Source: Paraspadella gotoi
Taxonomy: Eukaryota; Animalia; Chaetognatha
Assembly: GCA_051294375.1 (NCBI GenBank)
Contig: JBJCIZ010000653.1
Coordinates: forward strand, 1-20,045
DNA length: 20,045 nucleotides
Direction of reading: 5' to 3'
Position numbers and translations under genes: made by a program. Within the stretch, counting starts at the first letter, position 1. The number at the start of each line of letters is the position of its first letter. This document shows, in pieces, positions 1-20,045 of this stretch. The notes beneath the pieces were generated by a model. The model was given only the letters and a program-made list of their open reading frames with translations. It was not told the DNA's origin and did no database searches.

Positions 1-1446
1 CCATTTGACCTTACTACAAAATGTAGAATCCGTACATAAAAAATATGTCTCATAAATCCTATCGTAACTTTTTTCTGCAGCTCGCCCAAAATAATTCGAA
101 AAATCTTCCAATTTACTGTCAAATCTTGAACAAAAAATATTTATTCCGAGTCAGTAAGGGAGAATAGCACCAATATACAAAAATCGAAAATTATTAATAA
201 ATAAATTAAATTTTTTTAAAAACCCTACTTCCATGTCACTTAAAATTAATAATATACTTATCATTCTCTATATTTTAAGAATATCCTGGTGAAGTCAATA
301 ACCAATAAGCTAGCTCTCTAAGAAGTATGCAGTGTCTAACACTAGTAAAAATAAATACATCAAAAAAATTCAAATCTGAAAAAATAAATTATCATCTAGT
401 GAATTACGTGGTAAGGTACAATCCCTATGGGGAAAATTCGGCCGAAGCGAAAACTAAGCAAAATAAGGAAAAACGAATTTTCTTTTTTCGCCGAAGCCTC
501 TGTTAAAATAATTTCGGTTTTATGCATAGCAATAAAATGAAAAAATATAACATACAAAGAGTAAGTTCTTTGGAGGTGAGGTATCGTATTTTATTTTAAC
601 TTTCCCCTAACTAAATCAAAGCGGATGATTTATTGAAAATCGATCTGCAAGATCGCAAATTTTTTCATTCGGGCGATCCGCTTCACGAACGCGCGCCGCC
701 CGTACGAGTCGTTGCTAGGCACACCTTTCTGATAAACGCCGGGCCCCACATGCTCGTTCAACTTGGTTTTCGTCTACAAGAAGAGCGAGTAGGGCCTAGA
801 CCGACTCTGGGAATCTCAATGTGGATGAAGATGTCGGCTCCCGTGACGTTTTAAAGGTACTGATTAGATTCCCTGGCGCCGCAAGGCCGTGAAACGAATG
901 GAATCGCCTCACTAGATCGGAATGCTTCGCCCAGTCAGGAGGACAGCGATTGGAAGCCAGTCTTACCCCCGCAAGTCGAACTGAAGGAGACAAAACTAAC
1001 GAAGAGGCGAGAGTTTTCATACCAAGCACAAATTCGTCAAAGATGTCGAATGACCCGAAAATAAAAACATGAGAAATAAGTTCCATCTATTAAACCGAAA
1101 ATTATTTTTTACAATTAGCGAAGAGGCGTTTTCGCTGTCGAATGATATCGACGAGAGACTCGAGGGATGCTTCTTGCCGCAGATCACGTTGAAAACTAAA
1201 AAAGTTTATAACACGCGCGAACGAAATCAGCAATGACGATCCAGCATCCACGAGGCAACGGAAAACATGGGCGGAGAACGGGACACGCATCGACGAGGAC
1301 GGAGCCACCCGCGACAACTCGGCGACGAGACCGGATGTTCTTTGGTTTCCATGGAGACTAGACGCTCATTATTTGGCCACGTCGATCCAATATCCAAAGA
1401 AATCAGCCCGCATCATGGAATCATTCCATATCACCATTTTTCCGTG

Positions 1447-1468
1447 ATATATATATATATATATATAT
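1447..1468. repeat. (TA)n microsatellite
   Basis: Direct reading: atatatatatatatatatatat. Confidence 0.9.
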
Positions 1469-4400
1469 TCGTCTACCAAGACGATCCATGAATTTAGATA
1501 ATTCGATATTTGAAAAACGAGAAAAACGCGTTTTTTTTTTAACTCGAATTTACTATATTTGACGATAAGCGAAAATCGCCATTAAAAAATAACGAATTTA
1601 AAACATGAACTTATCTCGAACGGTGGGACGAATTAGGCGACATTATGGATAATAATTTTACTCAGACTAAACTTTGACGCGACGTAACATAACAACGCCG
1701 CAGGCATCTCGGAGGCATCCAGAATAAGAACATCTCCGGCGTCGTCTCTGTAGGCCTGATCGCGATCCAGAGACAATATCTCGATGGAAGAAAATTACAT
1801 TGCATCCAGTCCTCGGCCCGTTTAAACGTATCGTCGACCAAATTCGCTCCTCAGCGAAGCCACCCTGCACGTTGAAGACACGCTTCGCTGATGGCGCCGG
1901 AAAATATCGGCGTCGAAATGTCGCCGAAACTCACGGCTGAGCTGCACGTTGCCGACATCGATACGGAGTCAGGTTGCCAAATGAATTTCCACGGCGCTCG
2001 ACGACCCATGGCCGATCAGATCGTCGACGGTCCCGTCATCTTTGTAGAGAAGGAATCTTTCTACCGCGGCAAATTCGATTCTCGGACTCCACGAGATGAA
2101 TAAAAAGAGAGAAATCTTTTCTCGCGCTGGTGATGCGTCGTCACCACACGCAAGAACGTCGACGGCGAAGGACATCCTCCATATCCTGTTGGAACGCATC
2201 GTCAACTGAAGAATCTTCAATTTTCCACCTTTGGCCTAGGGAGTATAGACTCAGAGCCGAGATAAAAATATTTAACGAGACTAAGCTGAATTTTCAATCA
2301 CTTTGTAAAAATAGATATTTTTAAAAACAAAAACGCAATATCTCCATAATCCAAATAATACAAAGCTGAACACTGTCGTTGCTCAGACGACGATCGCGAT
2401 GGCGCGCAGGGCAGAAACGCGCCTCTGCTCGACGACCTAAACAGCAAAGTCACGTAGCCTTTCGCACGGCGCGGTCTGACCATTCTGGCGCGGCGTCAGA
2501 CTAGATTTCTCCCGCTGCTCTTCAATGCCGAATTGCTTGAAGATACTTTTGAAAATCCCACGATCTCGACGGGGCTCAATCCGTCTAGTGGAGAAGCGGA
2601 TGATGATTTCTTCCACAAAAGCAGCGCTCCTTTATCGGGCAGATTTCGACACCGATGACCGTTCCCAAGCAGTTGAAGCAGCGGGCTTGAGAGACGCACA
2701 GTTTTCGACATCTGCGGGCCACAGTCGTTGAAATTTTTCGCAGCTGTGCAAATAATGGCGTCCCTTGCAAAAGTGAGCATGGAATAAAAGTTTTCGATCC
2801 CGGCGTGGACGACGACGCCGACTCTGAGACGGCGTTCCGTTGATACAGGAACGGCTGCGGCGGCCACCGAAGCGATCTTTTTCTTCGATGCTTTGACCGC
2901 TGATGCGGCGTTGACCCTCGCCGCCATCTTCGTTCTGCTCGTCGCCGCTGAATCTTTTCCATTTTTCGCCGGTCTGAAATCGAGAACTTCTGATTTATGG
3001 CAAGAAAAGACAAAAATCAATAAAGGAGAGATGCGTCGATTCCATGATTCTGTCTAAAAATAACCACTTTTTTCGCCCACTTATCTGAAGGTGTGGCATC
3101 CGTTTGGAGAGCAGATCGCCATGACGGCCGCACGGTCGAGGTCTGCGAGTCGGTCCGTCTCCTTCGCGAGGTCGTACACCTGCTGCAAAGTGATCAGAAG
3201 ACCATGATGACCCGCTGAGTCCTTTCGATCGAAGCTTAGGACCGCCGAGGATCTGTTCAATCATTTCGTTCGCCGTCGTCCGCTTCATTCCCCACTTTCT
3301 CTTGAGAACGCAAGGGCGTCACTAAGAGCCGCGTAGCGTCTAACCGCAGATAGATATCGATCGATGGAACGCTTGGGAAGACCGTCGAACCAGTGAGGAA
3401 GCTCCTTCAACTTCATTGGATCCGTAGCGCCCTCCAACGCGCAGACGCTGACGTTAAAATCGCGAAGTTGGCGCTCAAGTCCTAAACGCGACGAAGTCTC
3501 GTCGACCTTGACCTTTGGCGCTGCTGCTGAAGCATTTGGTAGGCGAGCATTTGAGCTTGAATCTCCAAAAAACCCGTCGCCATTGCAGCGGAGCGGACGA
3601 AGGCTGCCTCGAACGGCGCCGCATCTGAGGATGACGCCGTTTGATGCCTTGAGGCGACAGAGACGTTCGTTACCGCATCAGTCGGCGAAACGTCCCTTTC
3701 AATAACGCCGGCGTTTCGGCGTTCAACGCCGCAGCGGCAGGAACGCCGGCAGGCGTGGCAGGCGTGAACTGGGGGGAGGATTCACTCCCCTCGTTCTCGA
3801 CGCCTCACGACGCAATCCATCATTGAAGAGGTCCTTATTGCGTCGCGCAAAAACTCCATTGAAACGAACTGCGGATTTGGCGGATCAGCGGCGGGCGGAA
3901 TGCCATCGGCTTCCGTTCCAACGCCCACCGCCTCCTCGCATCCAGGTTCCGGTTCGGCGGATGACGTTCACGTGTCGTCGACGAATTGACGCCGACTTCG
4001 TTGAGACGTGACGGCGATTCATGGCAGTGAATCGTCAAATCATTCGACGGAGATGGAGCTTGAAGACGGTTGACGAGCTGTTGGAGAGAGGGCTCATGAC
4101 GGGGGGAGTTTGACTGAGCCACGACCCACTCGGCCGTACGCGATGTCGCTGAAGCGTATGACGTTGAAACAGGTCTCTCTCGACTTCGCCAAGAACTCGT
4201 ATTACCGGCCTCTGCAAATCGCTTCTTCTCTCAATTCCTTTCCATTCTCGTCCTACTTGCGTTTTCGGCGGCAGCGGCGGCACACACGTCGTAGTCCGCC
4301 GATTCACACAACTCTCTCATCTATCCGACACTCCATGAAGATTCGAAACTGAACAAAAATCTTGCGCACTTCATCGACGCCGACGCGAGACGCTTCATCA

Positions 4401-5864
4401 ATAATCGAGCTACCATCCGAATTCTCGTTGGCGACAAGATTGATGTTTGTTGAAGACTCGTTCTCTCGTCGATCCAGATGTAATTGGCGACGTCGTCCCT
4501 GGAGATGCCGCGGCAGGCCGTGCTGCGATGCTGAGCAAAGCGCCAGACCGGCTGACAACTCCTGGGCTAACGCATCCACATCTTCGTTGTCGATAGTTGC
4601 ATGAGTGAAGTTGATATTTCTCTCTGTGCGCTGATCTTCCGTCAACGCCGAAACGGCGTCAAACGGGGTAATGATGGACGTTGCTGATTCGATGTCATCT
4701 TCAAGAGTCGGTGGAGGGGACGGTAATGGTCGGGTTGGACGCAGCGTAGTCATCGTCGGATGGTTTGCAGCTGAAGGACAGGTTGGGCGTCAAAGTCCCG
4801 ATTCCTTCTGCGTCGTCATCATCCGTGCTGCGGCGGATACGGAGCGTCTGTCGATCCTATGCTTTCAACCGATGAAACACGTGTCGACATAGAATTGGCC
4901 GCGAATCAAGCTGAGGCAATTGCCGAGGATGTTGCTGAGACGATCGAGGAACTCCGACAAAAGTTCCAACGCCTCGTCATTCCATCTACCTCTTTCAATC
5001 GTGGAACGGATGATTTCACAAGTTGCCTTTAGAGTCTTACAAACGAGCGGCGAAGTCCACAAAAGACGCCGAAAGGGGAGTTCCTTGAAGGCTTTCGGCA
5101 CTCGAGCTTCTCGACGTATTTTGATTGCTGGCGCGCTTATTTCTTCCCGTTCCTATTCGTCGCCGCGATGGCACAACTGACGGCGTTGAAGTTGAAGGAA
5201 GGCTTCACGAAGTTCGGTGGCAGCCAAAAACGCGAAAACGAAGAAATAAAACAAGTCGAAACCGGACTTCAATCTCACTGCCAGTTTTCGAGAAGGAGCG
5301 GCGATGCACAGTCCGTCAACGTCTCCAAAATACGTTCGACGGCGTCGTCGCTAGTCCGAGGATCCCTAATCGCAATGAAAGCAGTCCCGAAGGCGCCGCC
5401 GGATCCTTACGTCCGTCGAAGGCGTTGCAAGGGCCTTCGATTGATGGAAGTACGTCGACTCGTTCGACACCCTAGAGATCGACGCAGGTGGATCTTCTTC
5501 CCGTGGAATCCGCAAACTCCGCCGAGGATTAGAGAGCCTTCGACGAAGCACTTGAGCAGGTGTTCCGCAAAACGAAGACTTCTAATGTATTGAACTAAGT
5601 TCGGAGAAGTGGCGTCTTTGAATTCTAAACTGACTAGGCTAATTCTGCACATTGAAGACCAGATGGAATTGGGTATAAAATGGCGCAGAAGAGACGATGG
5701 CGCCGGTCCAGACGCCCTGGAGATGCTGACGACAAAGTCTCAGTAGACGACGTCGGCTAAGGCCGAAATGACGACTATCTACGAAGCCCAGGACTTGACG
5801 AAATGTCTGTAAGTCTGATGCGGTAAAGCTTGCTGAAGTAGAGTCTGTAAAGAGGTTAGAAGTC

Positions 5865-5935
5865 CTGGGCAAAGAATAACAAAACATTTAGTACAAACTC
5901 AGCAAATATATATAAATTTAAAGTGTCTTTCTTAC
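5865..5935 (-). other. Putative 71-nt spliceosomal intron
   Basis: Minus strand reads GTAAGAAAG...TACTAAAT...TTCTTTGCCCAG (donor, branch-like site, pyrimidine tract, acceptor). Removing it joins WFGGLFYEEKHLFLVNIGFRNK in frame to TSNLFTDSTSASF. Confidence 0.6.
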
Positions 5936-8466: not shown

Positions 8467-8649
8467 CATTTTTTCAACGTCGAAATTTGGAGTATGTTTA
8501 GTTTCTGGCTAATATTTTGAAACAAATTACCTGAATTATTTCAGTTCTTTTACTTTAATTCACACAATTTTCGAAAAAAATATTAAAAGTTGTTGCAAAA
8601 CAAAGATTCAAGAAATTAACAATGTTTTAACAAAGAAATTGGCACAAAT

Positions 8650-9633
8650 TCTCAACTGGATATAGTTACTAACCGAATAATATATTAATTTATAGAGGTT
8701 GGCTTTGATTTTGCCTTTAAAAGGATGTTTTGAGAGATAAAGCCGACCCAAACGGCAAGCCAAAGTCAACCAACGTGAATGCGAGATTGGGCTTTTAATT
8801 TGAGGTTCAATTGTTCCGCTTTGAATTGATTTAGCGACGAGGTATAGGTATTTTTGGTCGGAAGATAAATCCGAAAGAAGAACCTCTTCTTTTAACGGCG
8901 AAATCTTAGGAACATCTGAGACGGACAAAAATGTTTAATTCCAGTCTAAATTTTCGACTTTTGGCAAAATCTTTCCTATTGGTCCTTTAAATGAGTTATT
9001 CCCAGTAGTTGGGCCATCAACCGATTGAAAAAGGTGATGAAGACCTAACTCATTTGTATGCAAGCCGCACACGACCCAGTGAACTTTTTCTTCTCGTTCG
9101 TCTTCAATCTTTTTTACTATACCACCGTTTGGTCCAGTATTCACAGCAGTCGAGTCTACGCCGACAACTTTTAAATTTTTGGTCAGATCATTCTCATCAA
9201 GGAATTCCAGAATGGAGTCGGTCGTTGGTCCGGCTGCTTTCCCAGTTGGCGTCACGTGAGAGAGAAACCTTCCATCTGGCTGAGAGACCAAAACGATGTG
9301 CTCCATTTTTTCTTTTTGCTGCCGATGTTTTTCGTTTTCTTCGACGACTTTCAATGTTTTGATTTCTTTGCCGTCAAAGTATACGGCTTCAACAATGTCT
9401 TCCTTTAATCGTCGCGCTTCTTTTTTGCTGCAGTTTTCTCGGACTTTCTTCTTTTCATGTCGAATACGCTGGCGATCAATGACGCAGGAGGTGCTGTCGG
9501 ACGTGACGATGCCGAAGTCAATGAGGACAGCAGTTGCTATCGCCGCAGTCAAACGGTTTAACGCTCCCCATCGCATCGCTTCACGCGCTGTTGTAGGGAG
9601 AGGAGAGATTCGATACGAATCCTCGGAAATGGT
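8650..9633 (-). mobile_element. hAT-superfamily-like (hATm-type) DDE transposase fragment, pseudogenised
   Basis: Motifs AAIATAVLIDFG, VYFDGK, EHIVLVSQP, VDSTAVNTG, CGLHTNEL (CxxH), LSSDQKYL and SHSRWLT. ORFs 8935..9576 and 8608..8928 share a frame and are separated by one in-frame TAA. The frame is open upstream to 9633. The C-terminal part with the catalytic E appears to be missing. Confidence 0.8.
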
Positions 9634-10198: not shown

Positions 10199-10990
10199 CA
10201 ATGTACAAAAAATTTCTTATATGGCTCTATACCCAAATATTTATTTTTTAATATTTATTTTTAGAAAGGAAAGGAGTTCGACCCTATTCAGATTCGTCTA
10301 AAAACGAGTTCAGCTCTGAAGCGGCTGTCCAGCGGCTGTCCAGCTTTCTCTCTCTCTCTCTGTGTCTCTCTCTCTGTCTCTCTCTGTCTCTCTCTGTACG
10401 ATCTCTTGCGTGATCGTGCGTTTTTCGATAAATTCTGATTATTTTTCTCCTTCTAAAAACTTTTATTGTCGCCATTTATTCCGCGCTTTTTTCTCAATAC
10501 AAAATCCCAAATTTACATCCGAGTTTTTCGTGGATTTATTTTATGGCTCTGAGATTTAGTCAGAATATGTTTTATGTTTGGAAACAAAGTTCGTACACTC
10601 TCTCTCTCTTTCTCTCTCTCTCTCACTCATACACGCGTGTTTGTTTTATTTACGATGAATGACTCATCCCGTCAATGAATGACTATCATCGCATCAGTGA
10701 ATGACTATCATCGCATCAATCATTTGGTTATCTTCGCATCAATTATAGGTTATTATTGCATCAATTTTTGGTTATCATCGCATCAATTATTGGTTATCAT
10801 CGCATCAATTTTTGGTTAACCTCGCATCAATAAATTACTATTACATCAATCAATTACTATTACATAAATTAATCAATTACTATTACATCAATCAATCAAT
10901 TACTATTATATCAATCAATCAATCAATCACTATGGTTATCTTCACATCAATGAATGCTTATCATCATATCAGTGTATAATTATCATCGTA
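10199..10990 (+). repeat. Composite repeat copy 2 with expanded catcgcatcaat / atcaatcaattact minisatellite
   Basis: Collinear with 7545-8180. An inverted partial copy lies at ~12625-12707. Confidence 0.75.
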
Positions 10991-11091
10991 ACATAGTCGA
11001 GGTGAAACCAATGTCCTAAACTCGCTCGCCACTTCTCTTAAGTAGTCAATAATAATCTTCTCTCAAAAATAAAAAACAATTTCTATCTTTT

Positions 11092-11263
11092 TTTTGCCGG
11101 TTTATGGTTTAACTACCAAACAATATTTCTAGTTATCAAGATCCATTAGTGAGGCAGTGAAATATGTTTATATTTTCTTTGTTTCATATCGATTCAAGTA
11201 TTTTTTTTTGAATTTCCACTTCATTATGATTTACTGCAATATGCAAATTAGATTATAGTACTT
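11092..11263 (+). repeat. Left arm of a ~170-bp inverted repeat pair (partner 13424-13607)
   Basis: tttgccggtttatggt..aactaccaaacaat...tttactgcaatatgcaaattagattatagtactt is the reverse complement of aagtactataatctaatttgcatattgcagtaaa...attgtttggtagtt..accataaaccggcaaa. Confidence 0.8.
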
Positions 11264-11458
11264 TTTCATTAATTTTCTTTGATAGTAAGGTCTGTCGAGA
11301 TCCTTATACTTTTAAGATTTTTTTCATTGCCTTTGATAGATATTTACAAAATAAAAGTTTTTATTTGTAATAACCACGATCATTTAATAATTCGGATATG
11401 TTTTGCTTCTTGGTTTTTGAACCTTTATGGGGGACTAAAATCTACCAACCGTTCATCA

Positions 11459-11531
11459 GCGGCCATTGGTGCCGGAGGCAAGTCATTCGCCTCCCAACCC
11501 AAAGGTCCAGGGTTCTAGCCCGGTAGCCGCC
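11459..11531 (+). pseudogene. tRNA-Gly(CCC)-like sequence inside the 5' LTR (Pol III promoter-like)
   Basis: Acceptor GCGGCCA/TAGCCGC, A-box-like TGGTGCCGGAGG, TCGCCTCCCA anticodon region as in tRNA-Gly-CCC, B-box-like GGTTCTAGCCC. The anticodon stem is disrupted. Confidence 0.65.
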
Positions 11532-11532
11532 T

Positions 11533-11608
11533 AGCAGTTAAGAGGAACGGGGCGCTTAACCCGCCTGTAACATGGTGTTACAGTCTGATCCGAAGCTCAG
11601 GGACTGCT
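11533..11608 (+). ncRNA. Candidate P5-type twister ribozyme-like motif, copy 1 (G>A near the putative catalytic GA)
   Basis: P5 AGCAGTT/GACTGCT, P3 CTGTAAC/GTTACAG, P4 TCTGA/TCAGG with loop TCCGAAGC, T1 CCG/CGG, T2 GC/GC, TAA cleavage motif. Confidence 0.4.
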
Positions 11609-11656
11609 TATATTGAACGGTTCTGTCATTAACAACAATTATCACTGTCTTTTCAT

Positions 11657-11670
11657 TGGTGAGCCTGACT
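11657..11670 (+). other. Primer-binding-site-like sequence TGGTGAGCCTGACT
   Basis: Begins with TGG (complement of tRNA CCA) 1 nt after the LTR's terminal CA. Cognate tRNA not identified. Confidence 0.6.
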
Positions 11671-11822
11671 TTTGAACACAACAGCAACAACACTTTCAGG
11701 CGACGGGCCTCAATTGGGGATGCAATTTCCGCCAACAACATATCAGGTCACATGCCTCAACTTGGTGACGCACTTTCCACCAACAACAATTCACTGAAGA
11801 GACGCAACAGACTTCTCCCTAC

Positions 11823-11834
11823 GGGAGGGGGGGA
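11823..11834 (+). other. Polypurine tract GGGAGGGGGGGA
   Basis: Pure purine run directly abutting the TG of the 3' LTR. Confidence 0.8.
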
Positions 11835-11869
11835 TGTATGGTGGACTAAAATGCACCAACCGTTCATCA

Positions 11870-11942
11870 GCGGCCATTGGTGCCGTAGGCAAGTCATTCG
11901 CCTCCCAACCCAAAGGTCCGGGGTTCTAGCCCGGTGGCCGCC
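11870..11942 (+). pseudogene. tRNA-Gly(CCC)-like sequence inside the 3' LTR
   Basis: Perfect 7-bp acceptor stem GCGGCCA/TGGCCGC and T-arm-like CCGGG-GTTCTAG-CCCGG, tRNA-like length. Confidence 0.7.
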
Positions 11943-11943
11943 T

Positions 11944-12019
11944 AGCAGTTAAGAGGGACGGGGCGCTTAACCCGCCTGTAACATGGTGTTACAGCCTGAT
12001 CCGAAGCTCAGGGACTGCT
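11944..12019 (+). ncRNA. Candidate P5-type twister ribozyme-like motif, copy 2
   Basis: As copy 1 but with GA-CGG intact and P4 CCTGA/TCAGG fully Watson-Crick. P2 (CCC vs GAGG) is imperfect and P1 is minimal. Confidence 0.5.
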
Positions 12020-12334
12020 TATATTGAACGGTTCTGTCATTAACACATAATAATTATCACTGTCTCTTCACCTTCATCAACCAGTTTTAATAGTTTTAAT
12101 AAATATTTGGATACTAACTTTGAGAGATAAAGAGAGAGGCAATTTTAACCTTGATAACTCTCACTCTCTCCGAATTATTAAATGACCATTGTAATCATAA
12201 ATAAAAACTCTGTTACTTTATAAATACTATTATTATTATATGTTTTATAAATTTAATAATATTTAAATATTATTTTTTGAAATGTTGAATTATTGTATAC
12301 TTAAGCCGAAACTTAATTTTAAATTTAACTCAAA

Positions 12335-12445
12335 TTTACCCTTAACTTACCCCTAACCCAAACTTACCCTTAACCTAAACTTACCTCTACCCCTAACTTA
12401 CCCTTACCCCTAACTTACCCCTAACCCTAACTTACCCCTAACCTA
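12335..12445 (+). repeat. Degenerate telomere-like (CCCTAA / CTTACC) tandem tract
   Basis: ttacccttaacttacccctaaccc...ctaacttacccctaaccctaacttacccctaaccta. Confidence 0.75.
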
Positions 12446-12829
12446 TTTTTAACCTTAATTTTTTTTCTAGTCAACTTACACTTATTCTTAATTTATTCTT
12501 AACCATAATTTATTGTAACCTTAATTTTTACCCAAATATATATTGGTTGTACCAATTTCGTATAACAAAAATAAAAAATATGAAAAAAAAATCTTAAAAG
12601 CATAAGGATCGAGCCAGCTTTCGATGGTAACAAAATATTGATGCGATGATAATCATTCATTGATACGATGATAGCCATTCATTGACGCGATGAATCATTC
12701 ATCGTAATTTTTTTTTATCAATAGCAGAAAAGGCAACGCCTAACAAAAAAAATATATATATAATTTTAAAAAAATGTCACAACCGTTTACAATTTTTTTT
12801 TATTTAAAAAATTATAAAAACAGGGGATT

Positions 12830-15775: not shown

Positions 15776-16689
15776 AATCTGCGACGATCTATATTGCTTT
15801 TAGGATTGTAACTTGGCATCATTTTTTGCTTTCCATTCATTTTTCACTTAATTAATTAATTAATTAATTAAAACAATTATAGAATCATCATTAGATATTC
15901 TAATAGAAATAATAAAGATTCAAGTAAATGTGACTTATGTTTTTTCCATTTTAAACTCATTTCCACGGCACAATTCCGTCAAAACTTTATATCTAGCTTC
16001 TTCACAACACTTTCCTACCCGCTCACAAAATTTCATCTCAATCTAATTATGGGTTAAAATAAGTAAAAAGTTTCAAGTAAATGTGACTCATATTTTTTCA
16101 TTTAAACTCATTCCACTCGTACGTTTACACCGAACTTTATATCAAGATCGTTACACATTTTTCTACCCACACAAAAAATTTGAACTCAATCTATCCATCC
16201 AATTATGATTAATTAGAGTACTTATTGGTTAAAATAAGTAAAAATATTTTAGTAAATGCGACTATGTTTTTTCCACTTAAACTCATTTCCACTCACACGA
16301 TTCCGTCGAAACTTTATATCCAGCTTTTATCACACACCCCACACACAAAACTTCATTCCAATCCAACCAGCCAATAACGAGTTATTGGAGCTTTTTGCTA
16401 AGGTGGACGGATGGACGGATGATTGACTGATTAATTAATTATGATTAATTAATTGACTAATTGATTAATTAACTGATTAATTATTTGATTTATTAATACA
16501 TCCTGCATATACATTTAATATAAAAGGAAAAAGAATCATAATCAATTAGTGAAACAGGTTTTTTGTTTTTCCATTTAAACTCATTTCCACTCAAAAGATT
16601 CCATCGAAACTTGGTTTCCTGTTCAATCACACACTTTTCTACCTACATACAAAATTCCAGGTCAATCGATAATTAAATGGTAAAAAGCT

Positions 16690-17025
16690 AACTTGGTCAA
16701 CTTGCAATATTAATCAACTTGCATAATTTGGTCAACTGACATAATTTGGTCTACTGACATAATTTGGTCAACTGACATAATTTGGTCAACTGACATAATT
16801 TGCTCAATAAAATAATTTGGTCAAACCGGCATAATTTGGTCAACTAGCATAATTTTATCAAACTGGCCTAATTTGGTCAACTGGCATAATTTGGTCAACA
16901 GGCATAATTTGGTCAACTTGCAGAACTTGATCAACTTGCAGAATTTGGTCAACTGGCATAATTTGGTCAACTTTAAGAATTTGGTCAACTGGCATATTTT
17001 TGTCAATTGGAATAATTTGGTTAAT
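16690..17025 (+). repeat. 18-bp minisatellite (cataatttggtcaactgg/ga), about 18 units
   Basis: Direct reading. It produces the repetitive NLVNWH pseudo-ORF. Confidence 0.9.
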
Positions 17026-17754
17026 CAATCAATCAATCAATCAGAGAGAAATAGAGAGAGAGAAACTTTAAAAAATTCAAATAAATGTGTCTTTTGGTTT
17101 TCTTATTTGAACTCTTTTCCCACTCCACGATTCCATCAAAAAATTTATATCCAGCTTTATCACACACAAAATTCAATTTCGATTTTTAATAAACATAATA
17201 ATTATGAGTAAATTTAAGTAAAAATACTTCAAGTAAATATTTTAACTCATTTCCACTCGCACGATTCCATCGACACTTAATATCCAGTTAAATCACACAC
17301 TTTCCTACCATCATACAAAATTTCAAGTCAATTGCCCTATCCACTCTTAAGCAATTGGCGTTCAAATAGTGAAATATATTTTTTTGTTTTTTCCATTTAA
17401 ACCCATTTCCACTCGCACGATTCCCTCGAAACTTCATATCCATCTCAATCACACAGTTTCCTACCCACACACAAAATTCCATGCCAATCCATCCATCCAA
17501 TCACGAGTAATTGGAGTTTTTTGCTAAGGTGGGACGGACGGACGAACGGACGGACAGACGGACGGACGAAGATCGTTTTTTTTTTTGCATAATTAATCAT
17601 AATTCGATGTTCTGTCATGATATAAGTGTGTGCCCGACAATATTGAGGGGGCGGACCGACGGACCGACAAAGTGAATTATAGAGTCGGGATCTGCTGATA
17701 AGCAGATCGAATAAAAATCAATTTGACCGAGATCACGCCGCCGTTGCGAGGCCA

Positions 17755-17791
<37 letters not shown>

Positions 17792-17839
17792 TTTTTTTCC
17801 TTCTAAAAACTTTTATTATCGCCATTTATTCCGCGCTGA

Positions 17840-20045
17840 GATGAAAACGTTAAAAAAACCGAAAAACGACTTCTCCGTTTTCATTTCCTATGTAAAAAGA
17901 GCTAAAAACGTTAAAAACAACGAAAATGACTTTTCCAATGTCAAAAAAAAAACGTTAAAAACATCAAAAAACGTCTTTTCCATTGTAAAAAAGGATAAAA
18001 CGTTGAAAACACCAGAAAACAACTTCTTCAATGTAAAAGGAGATAAAAACTTTAGAAACAAAGAAAAACGCTTTTTCCAATGTAAAAAGAGATAAAAACG
18101 TAGAAAACACCGGAAAACGATATTTTCGAAGAAAAAAGAAATAAAAACGTTAAAAACTTCTGAAAACAAGATCATCGAGGTTGTTAAAATTGGGTGAGGA
18201 CAGTTACTTAAATACTTGTTTTTTTTACATTTTATTCAAAACAAACAAATTTCTCTTCTTGTTGACTTTTTATGTCTCCTTCTCTCTCTCTTTTCCCTCT
18301 CGTTTAATTATAGATGAGCCTTTCTCTCACCTCTTCAAAAAACTATAAGACGTTAAAAAACACCGACAGAACAACGCGACTTTTCCTTTGTAAAAAGTAC
18401 ATTGAAAACGCGAAGTACAAACAGATATACTAGAAACGATCTTTTTTTTCCCACCGATGGTAAAAGACATAAATGCATTAAACAACACCGAGACAACACG
18501 AAACTTTAACACAACTAAAAAAGACGATACAAAACTTTTAAAACAAAGACAAATACGGCTTTTTGCCACAATGTAAAAAACGACGATAAAAACGTAGAAA
18601 CACAAGCAACGACAGGCAATTTGATATTTTTCTCAATGTAAAAACAGAAATAAAGACACGTTAACAACTTTTCGGCATAGCAACTTTTTCAATACATAAA
18701 AAACGAGAATAACAAGGTTTAAAACGAATGGCGACAAACGACTTTTTCATACTGGTAAAAAGAGATAACAAACGTTACAATACACAAAAGCCGAGCACGA
18801 CGACACTTTATCCTATGTAAAGAACGAGAGAAACGTTGAAACACTAGCNNNNNNNNNNNNNNNNNNNNNNNNNNNNNNNNNNNNNNNNNNNNNNNNNNNN
18901 NNNNNNNNNNNNNNNNNNNNNNNNNNNNNNNNNNNNNNNNNNNNNNNNNNNNNNNNNNNNNNNNNNNNNNNNNNNNNNNNNNNNNNNNNNNNNNNNNNNN
19001 NNNNNNNNNNNNNNNNNNNNNNNNNNNNNNNNNNNNNNNNNNNNNNNNNNNNNNNNNNNNNNNNNNNNNNNNNNNNNNNNNNNNNNNNNNNNNNNNNNNN
19101 NNNNNNNNNNNNNNNNNNNNNNNNNNNNNNNNNNNNNNNNNNNNNNNNNNNNNNNNNNNNNNNNNNNNNNNNNNNNNNNNNNNNNNNNNNNNNNNNNNNN
19201 NNNNNNNNNNNNNNNNNNNNNNNNNNNNNNNNNNNNNNNNNNNNNNNNNNNNNNNNNNNNNNNNNNNNNNNNNNNNNNNNNNNNNNNNNNNNNNNNNNNN
19301 NNNNNNNNNNNNNNNNNNNNNNNNNNNNNNNNNNNNNNNNNNNNAAATGATTTTTCCAATGTAAAAAGAGATAAAAAACACCGAAAAATGCTTTTTCCAA
19401 TGTAGAAAGAGATAAAAACGTTAAATACACCGGCAGAGGACATTTCCTATGTAAAAAGAGATAAAAACGTTAAAAACACCAGCAAACGACTTTTCCAAAA
19501 AGATAAAAACTTTAAAAACAAAGAAAAACGCTTTTTCCAATGTAAAAAGAGATAAAAACGTTAAAAACACCGAAAAAGAGCTTTTCCAATGTAAAAAGAG
19601 TTAAAAACGTTAAAAACTTTGGCAAACGACTTTTCCAATAAAAAAAGAAATAAAACCGTTGAAAAACTCGTCAAACGACTATTCCTATGTAAAAAAAGCT
19701 AAAAACGTTAAAAACATCAAAAAACGACTTTTCTTTTGTAAAAAGAGATTTAAACGTTAAAAACACCGAAAAACGACTTCTCCGTTTTCTTTTCCTATGT
19801 AAATAGAGCTAAAAACGTTAAAAACACCGGAAAACGACATTTCCAATGTCAAAAGAGATAAAAACGTTAAAAACATCAAAAAATGTCTTTTCCATTGTAA
19901 AAAAGGATAAAAACGTTGAAAACACCAGAAAACAACTTCTTCAATGTAAAAGGAGATAAAAACTTTAAAAACAAAGAAAAAGGCTTTTTCCAATGTAAAG
20001 AGAGTTAAAACGTAGAAAACACCGGAAAACGATATTTTCAAAGAA
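17840..20045 (+). repeat. ~49-bp satellite (ttttccaatgtaaaaagagataaaaacgttaaaaacaccgaaaaacgac), interrupted at ~18170-18330 and by the gap
   Basis: tgtaaaaagag recurs at 49-bp spacing (e.g. 19541, 19590). Units are more degenerate at 18340-18848. Confidence 0.9.
18849..19344. other. Assembly gap (496 N)
   Basis: Run of N. Confidence 0.99.

Follow-up and report, generated by a model that had tools for sequence, protein, structure and literature searches.

Helenus elements are TRIMs (TRIMp3) that carry a tRNA-like sequence in the LTR, have a 4-bp TSD in animals and use a PBS common to Gypsy elements (Kojima 2024, PMC10886601). Plant LTR retrozymes are non-coding elements with a ribozyme in each LTR, a PBS, a PPT, a 4-bp TSD and a Gypsy partner (Cervera 2016, PMC4918200), and LTR retrozymes are presented as primarily plant elements with type III hammerheads (10.64898/2026.07.22.740005). 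Hammerheads of the axolotl that have one pair and a palindromic tetraloop show poor cleavage as monomers but cleave well once dimeric (PMC7229834), and the retroelement twisters reported so far come from the 5' ends of non-LTR elements (PMC8501958; PMC7761336).

The window analysed in this study (the whole stretch of DNA, 20,045 nt) contains a TRIM of 645 bp at 11426-12070, with all of its features described here lying on the plus strand. It comprises two LTRs, a PBS and a PPT and is without coding capacity, the longest ATG ORF anywhere in it being 66 aa. The 5' LTR (230 bp, 11426-11655) and the 3' LTR (234 bp, 11837-12070), delimited by alignment and by the family ends seen at contig break points, are identical in 220 of 234 alignment columns (94%) and differ by 10 substitutions and one 4-bp indel (K2P 0.045). 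The direct-repeat offset between them is 411 bp in a repeat search of the window, as the first-pass annotation had it, but the repeat lengths given there (232 and 236 bp, with a left end set 2 bp beyond the actual one) needed correction, as did the length of its non-coding interior, which is 181 bp (11656-11836, by alignment and ORF lengths) and not 179 bp. The interior starts with one T followed by a TGG-type PBS (11657-11669) and ends with a 12-nt purine tract, the PPT (11823-11834), and the two bases TG, after which the 3' LTR begins; both the PBS and the G-rich PPT had been recognised previously. TG...CA ends had also been claimed for the 3' copy, but this TG, at 11835-36, is part of the interior and lies outside the integrated LTR, the ends of which are TA...CA. 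Integrase processing would remove two bases such as those separating the PPT from the LTR. The PBS is nearest to the tRNA-Trp type in a by-eye comparison with Fig. S2 of PMC10886601, matching at 11 of 13 letters in the window copy, with bee tRNA-Trp and not that of the host as the reference, and at 12 of 13 if 11666 is given the letter that predominates there (90% of run X2 depth). The element is flanked by CCTT at 11422-11425 and 12071-12074.

Evidence for a family was drawn from public contigs from sequencing runs, in which contigs are not equal to copies and depth is not copy number. Part of the TRIM was present in 12 of the 14 runs listed, nine of the 12 being from one organism, and four runs had from 1,186 to 20,746 contigs each aligned on 11200-12300, repetitive flanks included. 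Contigs from other insertions stop matching abruptly ahead of 11837 (89, 91, 53 and 21 of them in the four runs) and past 12070 (112, 98, 53 and 32), so the LTR ends of the family are TA...CA. Two of the four runs also have contigs that join 11420 to 12070 and skip 649 bases, the 645 of the element plus 4, which bears out the CCTT TSD that had been thought possible, with the qualification that the flank is itself repetitive and that these joints may be paralogous empty targets. The shared ends and the 649-base joint together mark the element as an interspersed family with a 4-bp TSD. By the contig evidence, the interior is multi-copy in its own right, with several private changes in the window copy relative to the family contigs, and LTR positions are deeper than interior positions, although depth cannot be read as copy number. 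That the element is a TRIM is regarded as practically certain. In each of the four runs, a low-agreement consensus of the flanks has ATAT next to both junctions, as its last letters on the left and its first on the right, a hint that ATAT may be preferred as a target. Run X10, from a second organism, contains 100 LTR bases with 3 differences and an identical 3' end at low depth, which may represent a sister species or contamination.

Around the element, arrays of a 22-bp repeat lie in inverted orientation at 10642-10993 and 12622-12707 (arms 10650-10726/12631-12707, 90% complementary); the TRIM, whose flanks are multi-copy, may be nested in a larger element with inverted repeats. Two adjacent ORFs of 232 and 108 aa occupy the minus strand at 8608-9633, the former with 32 unnamed homologs (up to 66% identical) and no Pfam match, and may represent a broken DNA-transposon gene. 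A 17-bp tandem array of CCCTAA-like units at 12306-12458 resembles degenerate telomeric repeats, and further tandem arrays occur at 16678-17072 (18-bp units) and 17838-20034 (49-bp units, broken by an N gap at about 18.85-19.35 kb). The region from about 700 to 5900 is GC-rich; it has numerous open frames that overlap, and those tried matched neither Pfam nor a homolog. Pfam gave no match for nine ORFs of the window, and one ORF had no homolog. The host is eukaryotic and, judging from the type of TSD, probably an invertebrate.

In its layout, the element is similar to Helenus, being shorter than 1 kb with two LTRs, a box A/box B unit, a PBS, a PPT, no ORF and a 4-bp TSD, and its PBS belongs to the Gypsy-type tRNA class (PMC10886601). 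TG...CA ends, which are usual but not universal in Helenus, are absent, and TA...CA ends are also seen in Helenus-3_MeDo (PMC10886601). On these sequence features, the tRNA-headed LTR layout is one already known as Helenus, and the element has the defining Helenus features that were examined. The head is a tRNA-Gly(CCC)-like unit at 11459-11531 in the 5' LTR (box A 11467-11478, box B 11511-11521; ARAGORN at 85% of threshold and a box scan) and at 11870-11942 in the 3' LTR (box A 11878-11889, box B 11922-11932; ARAGORN at 90%). ARAGORN at default called no tRNA gene; at 90% of threshold its sole call in the element was the 73-nt unit of the 3' LTR, and at 85% both heads were called, together with one overlapping spurious call. 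Shuffled LTRs gave any call in 3/1000 (90%) and 15/1000 (85%) cases, and box A with box B at tRNA spacing arose in 20 of 20,000 shuffles. The proposal of a tRNA-derived head thus survives, on the ARAGORN calls at 85-90% of threshold and the box spacing. The head of the 3' LTR has a perfect 7-bp acceptor stem and broken D and anticodon arms, the latter being expected for a promoter rather than a working tRNA, and box A reads TGGTG, departing from TRGCY. Judged from these signals, the head is likely a Pol III promoter. Runs of four T occur in the window copy at 11650 and 11670 only, with none on the plus strand of the 3' LTR, and both are interrupted in 95-98% of run X2 depth, so the family seems to be without a Pol III terminator. 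A 9-bp helix (11858-11866/12025-12033) is predicted to enclose both the head and the ribozyme motif that follows it (11858-12033; pair probability 0.91 in the isolated LTR).

That motif resembles a P5-permuted twister and lies at 11534-11607 in the 5' LTR (predicted cut 11557/11558; descriptor and covariance model) and at 11945-12018 in the 3' LTR (predicted cut 11968/11969; descriptor, folding and covariance model). Each LTR has, in order, P5, P2', GACGG, a 6-nt linker, UAA, CCC, GC, a 7-bp P3, a 5-bp P4 around UCCGAAGC, and P5. The helices of the 3' copy are P5 (11945-50/12013-18), P2 (11955-56/11971-72), P3 (11976-82/11988-94) and P4 (11995-99/12008-12), and its strands are GACGG (11957-61, with the general-base G11957), UAA (11968-70), GC (11974-75) and the loop UCCGAAGC (12000-07). 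Roles of individual residues are in part those we assume twisters to have in general. The core of the 3' LTR is intact, including the general-base G, both post-cut adenines, the pseudoknots T1 (CCG/CGG) and T2 (GC/GC), P3, P4 and P5. The third pair of P2 is C.A, leaving P2 with two of three pairs, and the 5' LTR of the window copy has A at the general-base position 11546. The twister-like fold described in the first-pass annotation is thus present as a motif in both LTRs, but with the general-base G lost from the 5' one. For type-P1 twisters, a high-throughput study found a drop in mean cleavage from 0.76 to 0.54 on changing the general-base G to A, together with tolerance of imperfections in P1 and P2 but not of pseudoknot mismatches (PMC11662667).

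The motif was compared with the type-P5 consensus model of PMC5408937, and searches used a permissive descriptor that was composed after the sequence was known. Within the window, this descriptor matched the 3' LTR alone, or both LTRs when the general-base G was not demanded, and it matched none of 30,000 LTR shuffles and none of 72 unrelated loci. A twister-core pattern matched one viral locus and 71 metagenome loci, and not one of them aligned to the element (blastn, E 0.1) or passed the descriptor. Rfam returned no twister match for the window or the element at E up to 10, only unrelated chance-level ones, and no hammerhead in the element. An independent covariance model, made from 43 of 81 well-paired phage twister motifs from viral contigs and giving rough E-values, ranked the 3' LTR motif first in the window (E 0.00072) and the 5' LTR motif second (E 0.014), with the next match at 0.18. 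A perfect 3-bp P2 is present in 59 of the 64 distinct phage motifs whose P2 spacer is 3 nt and whose T1 is complementary, and Rfam Twister-P5 was called at 19 of 20 such phage loci (17 above the gathering score), which indicates that a 3-nt P2 with a CCG/CGG pseudoknot is natural in P5 twisters. Phage contigs are rich in P5 twisters with a 3-bp P2, with up to five per 1.5 kb. The LTR motif shares with type-P5 twisters (RF02684) the strand order, the UAA cut site, the GC and CCN pseudoknot partners, the loop UCCNAAGC and the GANGG strand, and with many phage representatives the 3-nt P2. It differs from phage P5 twisters in a P1 of 6 nt, versus 14-24 nt in the 81 well-paired motifs, in the C.A pair of P2 and in inner P4 pairs that are not GG/CC (required by the phage search patterns), and, unlike RF02684 members, it falls below Rfam detection. 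Taken on its sequence, the motif is very probably derived from a twister.

The 6-nt P1 linker is self-complementary (11551-11556 in the 5' copy, which could pair with 11962-11967; GGCGCT at 11962-11967 in the 3' copy) and consists of one G.U pair capped by a palindromic tetraloop. Only 5 of 229 LTR hexamers self-pair as strongly, the chance of such a palindrome being about 0.02-0.05. Nested folding keeps P3, P4 and P5, and a hairpin (11959-62/11971-74) displaces P2, whose probability is 0.0. The nested fold compatible with activity costs 8.2 kcal/mol, a value equalled or exceeded in 2 of 96 phage twisters (median about 4; pseudoknots unscored), and this cost and the competing hairpin lead to the prediction that a lone twister copy is slow or off. 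The dimer fold costs 7.6 kcal/mol per site versus 8.3 in cis (pseudoknots unscored), and when the swapped P2 pairs are enforced in an LTR-interior-LTR transcript, a shared P1 of 6 bp arises unforced. The two LTR linkers could therefore share a 6-bp P1 that serves two strand-swapped twisters, a structural possibility with a precedent and a small predicted energy gain. That precedent is found in the hammerheads of amphibian non-LTR retrozymes, in which the cut-site helix is also one pair with a palindromic tetraloop and two copies occur on one RNA, although those elements carry hammerheads, form tandem arrays without PBS or PPT, and have dimer cleavage that is shown there and predicted here (PMC7229834). 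It was also considered that the upstream leader might switch on the 3' ribozyme alone and leave its 5' counterpart off, but folding gave no support for this, removal of the leader hardly altering the predicted ribozyme stems. Cleavage at both predicted sites would yield exactly 411 nt (11558-11968, by arithmetic on the predicted cuts), in agreement with the monomer length first suggested. This monomer is 58% paired and folds unremarkably relative to shuffles (z -0.89, with -2.18 for the LTR alone and -0.16 for the interior); a high degree of pairing is reported for the retrozyme RNAs of metazoans and plants (PMC4918200).

Variation in the ribozyme region was taken from 8,845 run X2 contigs on 11925-12045, with variants unphased. 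The differences listed at 1% or more number 21, all within 11956-12013, and are mostly transitions at 1-8%, many of them at CpG. Three of those listed exceed 10%: two in the P3 loop (11983 and 11984), and 12003 G>A, a change that disrupts a T1 pair and accounts for 13% of run X2 depth and 4.2% of X9 depth. No listed change in run X2 falls at G11957, the two cut-site adenines or the AAGC of loop 4, and at G11957 no alternative letter is as high as 1% in the runs aligned. Three common changes just upstream of the motif (11938, 11941 and 11944) retain G.U pairs. The pattern fits constraint on the twister core, with little power given a young-looking family and unphased contigs. Compensation within T1 between 11959 and 12003 was considered, at 7.5% and 13% in X2 but 0.3% and 4.2% in X9, and was not counted, the variants being unphased. 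Neither run X9, which is RNA only by guess and covers the flanks too, nor the marine metatranscriptome X12, with one 48-base contig match, shows transcription.

Unlike described Helenus, the element has a twister motif after the tRNA head and a box A of TGGTG versus TRGCY (PMC10886601). A ribozyme is named in a reference title only in the available text of that paper, and none for Helenus; five motifs of the element (loop 4, PBS, box B, anticodon arm and cut strand) found no resembling Helenus in the available Data S1 (PMC10886601). A 10-nt motif in common with Ajax LTRs was taken as chance. Core motifs of ribozymes were also sought in the Helenus data file of that paper (PMC10886601), where line breaks may hide matches. 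With that caveat, the file contains no twister loop in any LTR. Helenus-2_SyJa-LTR and Helenus-2_SyUm-LTR each carry, 3' of the tRNA head, what we take, by eye and from its core motifs, to be a complete type III hammerhead. This putative Synergus wasp hammerhead is letter-identical in the two elements while their tRNA heads differ, it has a 12-nt loop-loop complement, and it is unmentioned in the available parts of PMC10886601. The present element resembles these two in having a tRNA head followed by a self-cleaving-ribozyme motif, which in the wasps lie in a 277-bp LTR, a tRNA-Trp PBS and a 4-bp TSD, whereas they have a type III hammerhead (by eye), an interior of 485-487 bp and TG...CA ends. 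Ribozyme-bearing Helenus may be recurrent on this comparison. Of the combination of tRNA and twister that the first-pass annotation put forward as new, TRIMs with a tRNA in the LTR are already known as Helenus (PMC10886601), but a twister in an LTR was not found described. A literature search of mainly open-access papers, PMC13570524 and PMC12859917 among them, turned up neither a twister in an LTR nor a natural dimeric one, nor any mention of a ribozyme in Helenus, and the twister module in LTRs is apparently undescribed in the literature covered.

With plant LTR retrozymes, the element shares LTRs with a ribozyme motif in each, a PBS, a PPT, a 4-bp TSD, a non-coding sequence and the prediction, made here, that double cleavage would yield a unit-length RNA. 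Plant LTR retrozymes differ in having a type III hammerhead, LTRs of about 350 bp, a tRNA-Met PBS, no tRNA head and circRNAs that have been shown (PMC4918200). As it has neither a hammerhead nor a compact monomer, the element is not placed among the LTR retrozymes, but it may work like one. The idea of a new retrozyme class is not supported as stated, the Helenus layout being known and the monomer not unusually structured.

The preferred reading, to which a probability of about 0.38 is given, is that of a TRIM with a Helenus layout that is driven by Pol III, undergoes double twister cleavage in both LTRs and forms a 411-nt circle for reverse transcription. Transcription by Pol III would begin from the tRNA head at 11459, the two LTR twister halves would pair through the palindromic P1 that they share, and the 411-nt RNA would be released by cuts at 11557/8 and 11968/9. 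If cleavage depends on two copies, the circle, having one ribozyme, would stay uncut, which would account for how it could persist. Host ligation of the RtcB type would join the 5'-OH and cyclic-phosphate ends into the circle, which would be primed by tRNA-Trp and reverse transcribed by a partner that is likely of the Gypsy type, still the best guess as it was in the first-pass annotation. Copying round the circle would rebuild two LTRs, and integration with a 4-bp TSD would follow. The twister probably cleaves in the active copies of the family, and, given cleavage, the model slightly favours the circle as the replication intermediate; the Rfam miss, the hairpin, the folding cost, the ordinary monomer fold, 12003 G>A, the A in the 5' LTR and the chance probability of the palindrome were all counted against this reading. 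A wider claim, that this is a non-plant and probably animal LTR retrozyme, namely a Pol III-driven TRIM with a natural double twister and a spared circle which, with the wasp Helenus, would mean that ribozyme-bearing TRIMs recur in animals, is considered unlikely.

Some of these features can be read in other ways. Two SINE copies, or a local tandem duplication, could mimic an LTR element, and the LTR is indeed SINE-like in its tRNA head, body and A/T-rich tail, with more depth on it than on the interior (not copy number). This explanation is largely refuted and very improbable, because a single 4-bp TSD brackets all 645 bp, the repeats are abutted by the PBS and PPT, the interior is multi-copy and other insertions stop sharply at the identical two positions; the initial identification of an LTR retroelement is upheld on the same grounds. 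It is possible, if doubtful, that the twister is carried along as a passenger with little or no activity, a tRNA-headed SINE with a ribozyme-derived body having been caught in the LTR of an ordinary Helenus TRIM that replicates via a linear, terminally redundant RNA. An origin of Helenus by SINE insertion into an LTR has been proposed (PMC10886601), twisters are known from the 5' ends of non-LTR elements (PMC8501958; PMC7761336), and the collapsed P1, the P2 of 2 bp, the competing hairpin and the high folding cost agree with loss of function, as does a family that looks young, in which an intact core need not imply selection. Yet the family majority retains all catalytic and pseudoknot positions and three helices, the motif's two commonest changes fall in the P3 loop, and a hammerhead occurs in parallel in wasp Helenus; the retention of G.U at 11938, 11941 and 11944 points the same way, if weakly, since transitions often preserve wobble pairs.

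It is also conceivable, though rather unlikely, that an active ribozyme makes one RNA end, with the cut in the 3' LTR replacing a terminator or that in the 5' LTR setting the 5' end, so that about 100 nt of terminal redundancy would permit normal strand transfer with no circle. The prediction of a slow, attenuated ribozyme, the seeming lack of a Pol III terminator in the family and a monomer without the compact fold of retrozyme circles would all suit such a use, but with two LTRs that start out identical at integration and a double fold that is predicted to be symmetric, nothing in the analysis speaks for one cut over the other, and the predicted ribozyme stems hardly change on leader removal.

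Should the twister be active in the LTRs of a high-copy TRIM, this would be a new biological job for twisters, and the preferred reading, if true, would extend the circular-RNA route of LTR retrotransposition beyond plants and link it with Pol III promoters. A twister that depends on dimers would, if true, parallel the double hammerhead, and it would resemble the engineered tandem-twister constructs with which circular RNA is produced in mammalian cells (noted in PMC7229834). The putative hammerhead in two published Helenus consensus sequences suggests that TRIM libraries merit screening for ribozymes. If the reading as an animal retrozyme is true, ribozymes would be interchangeable among recurrent ribozyme-bearing TRIMs.
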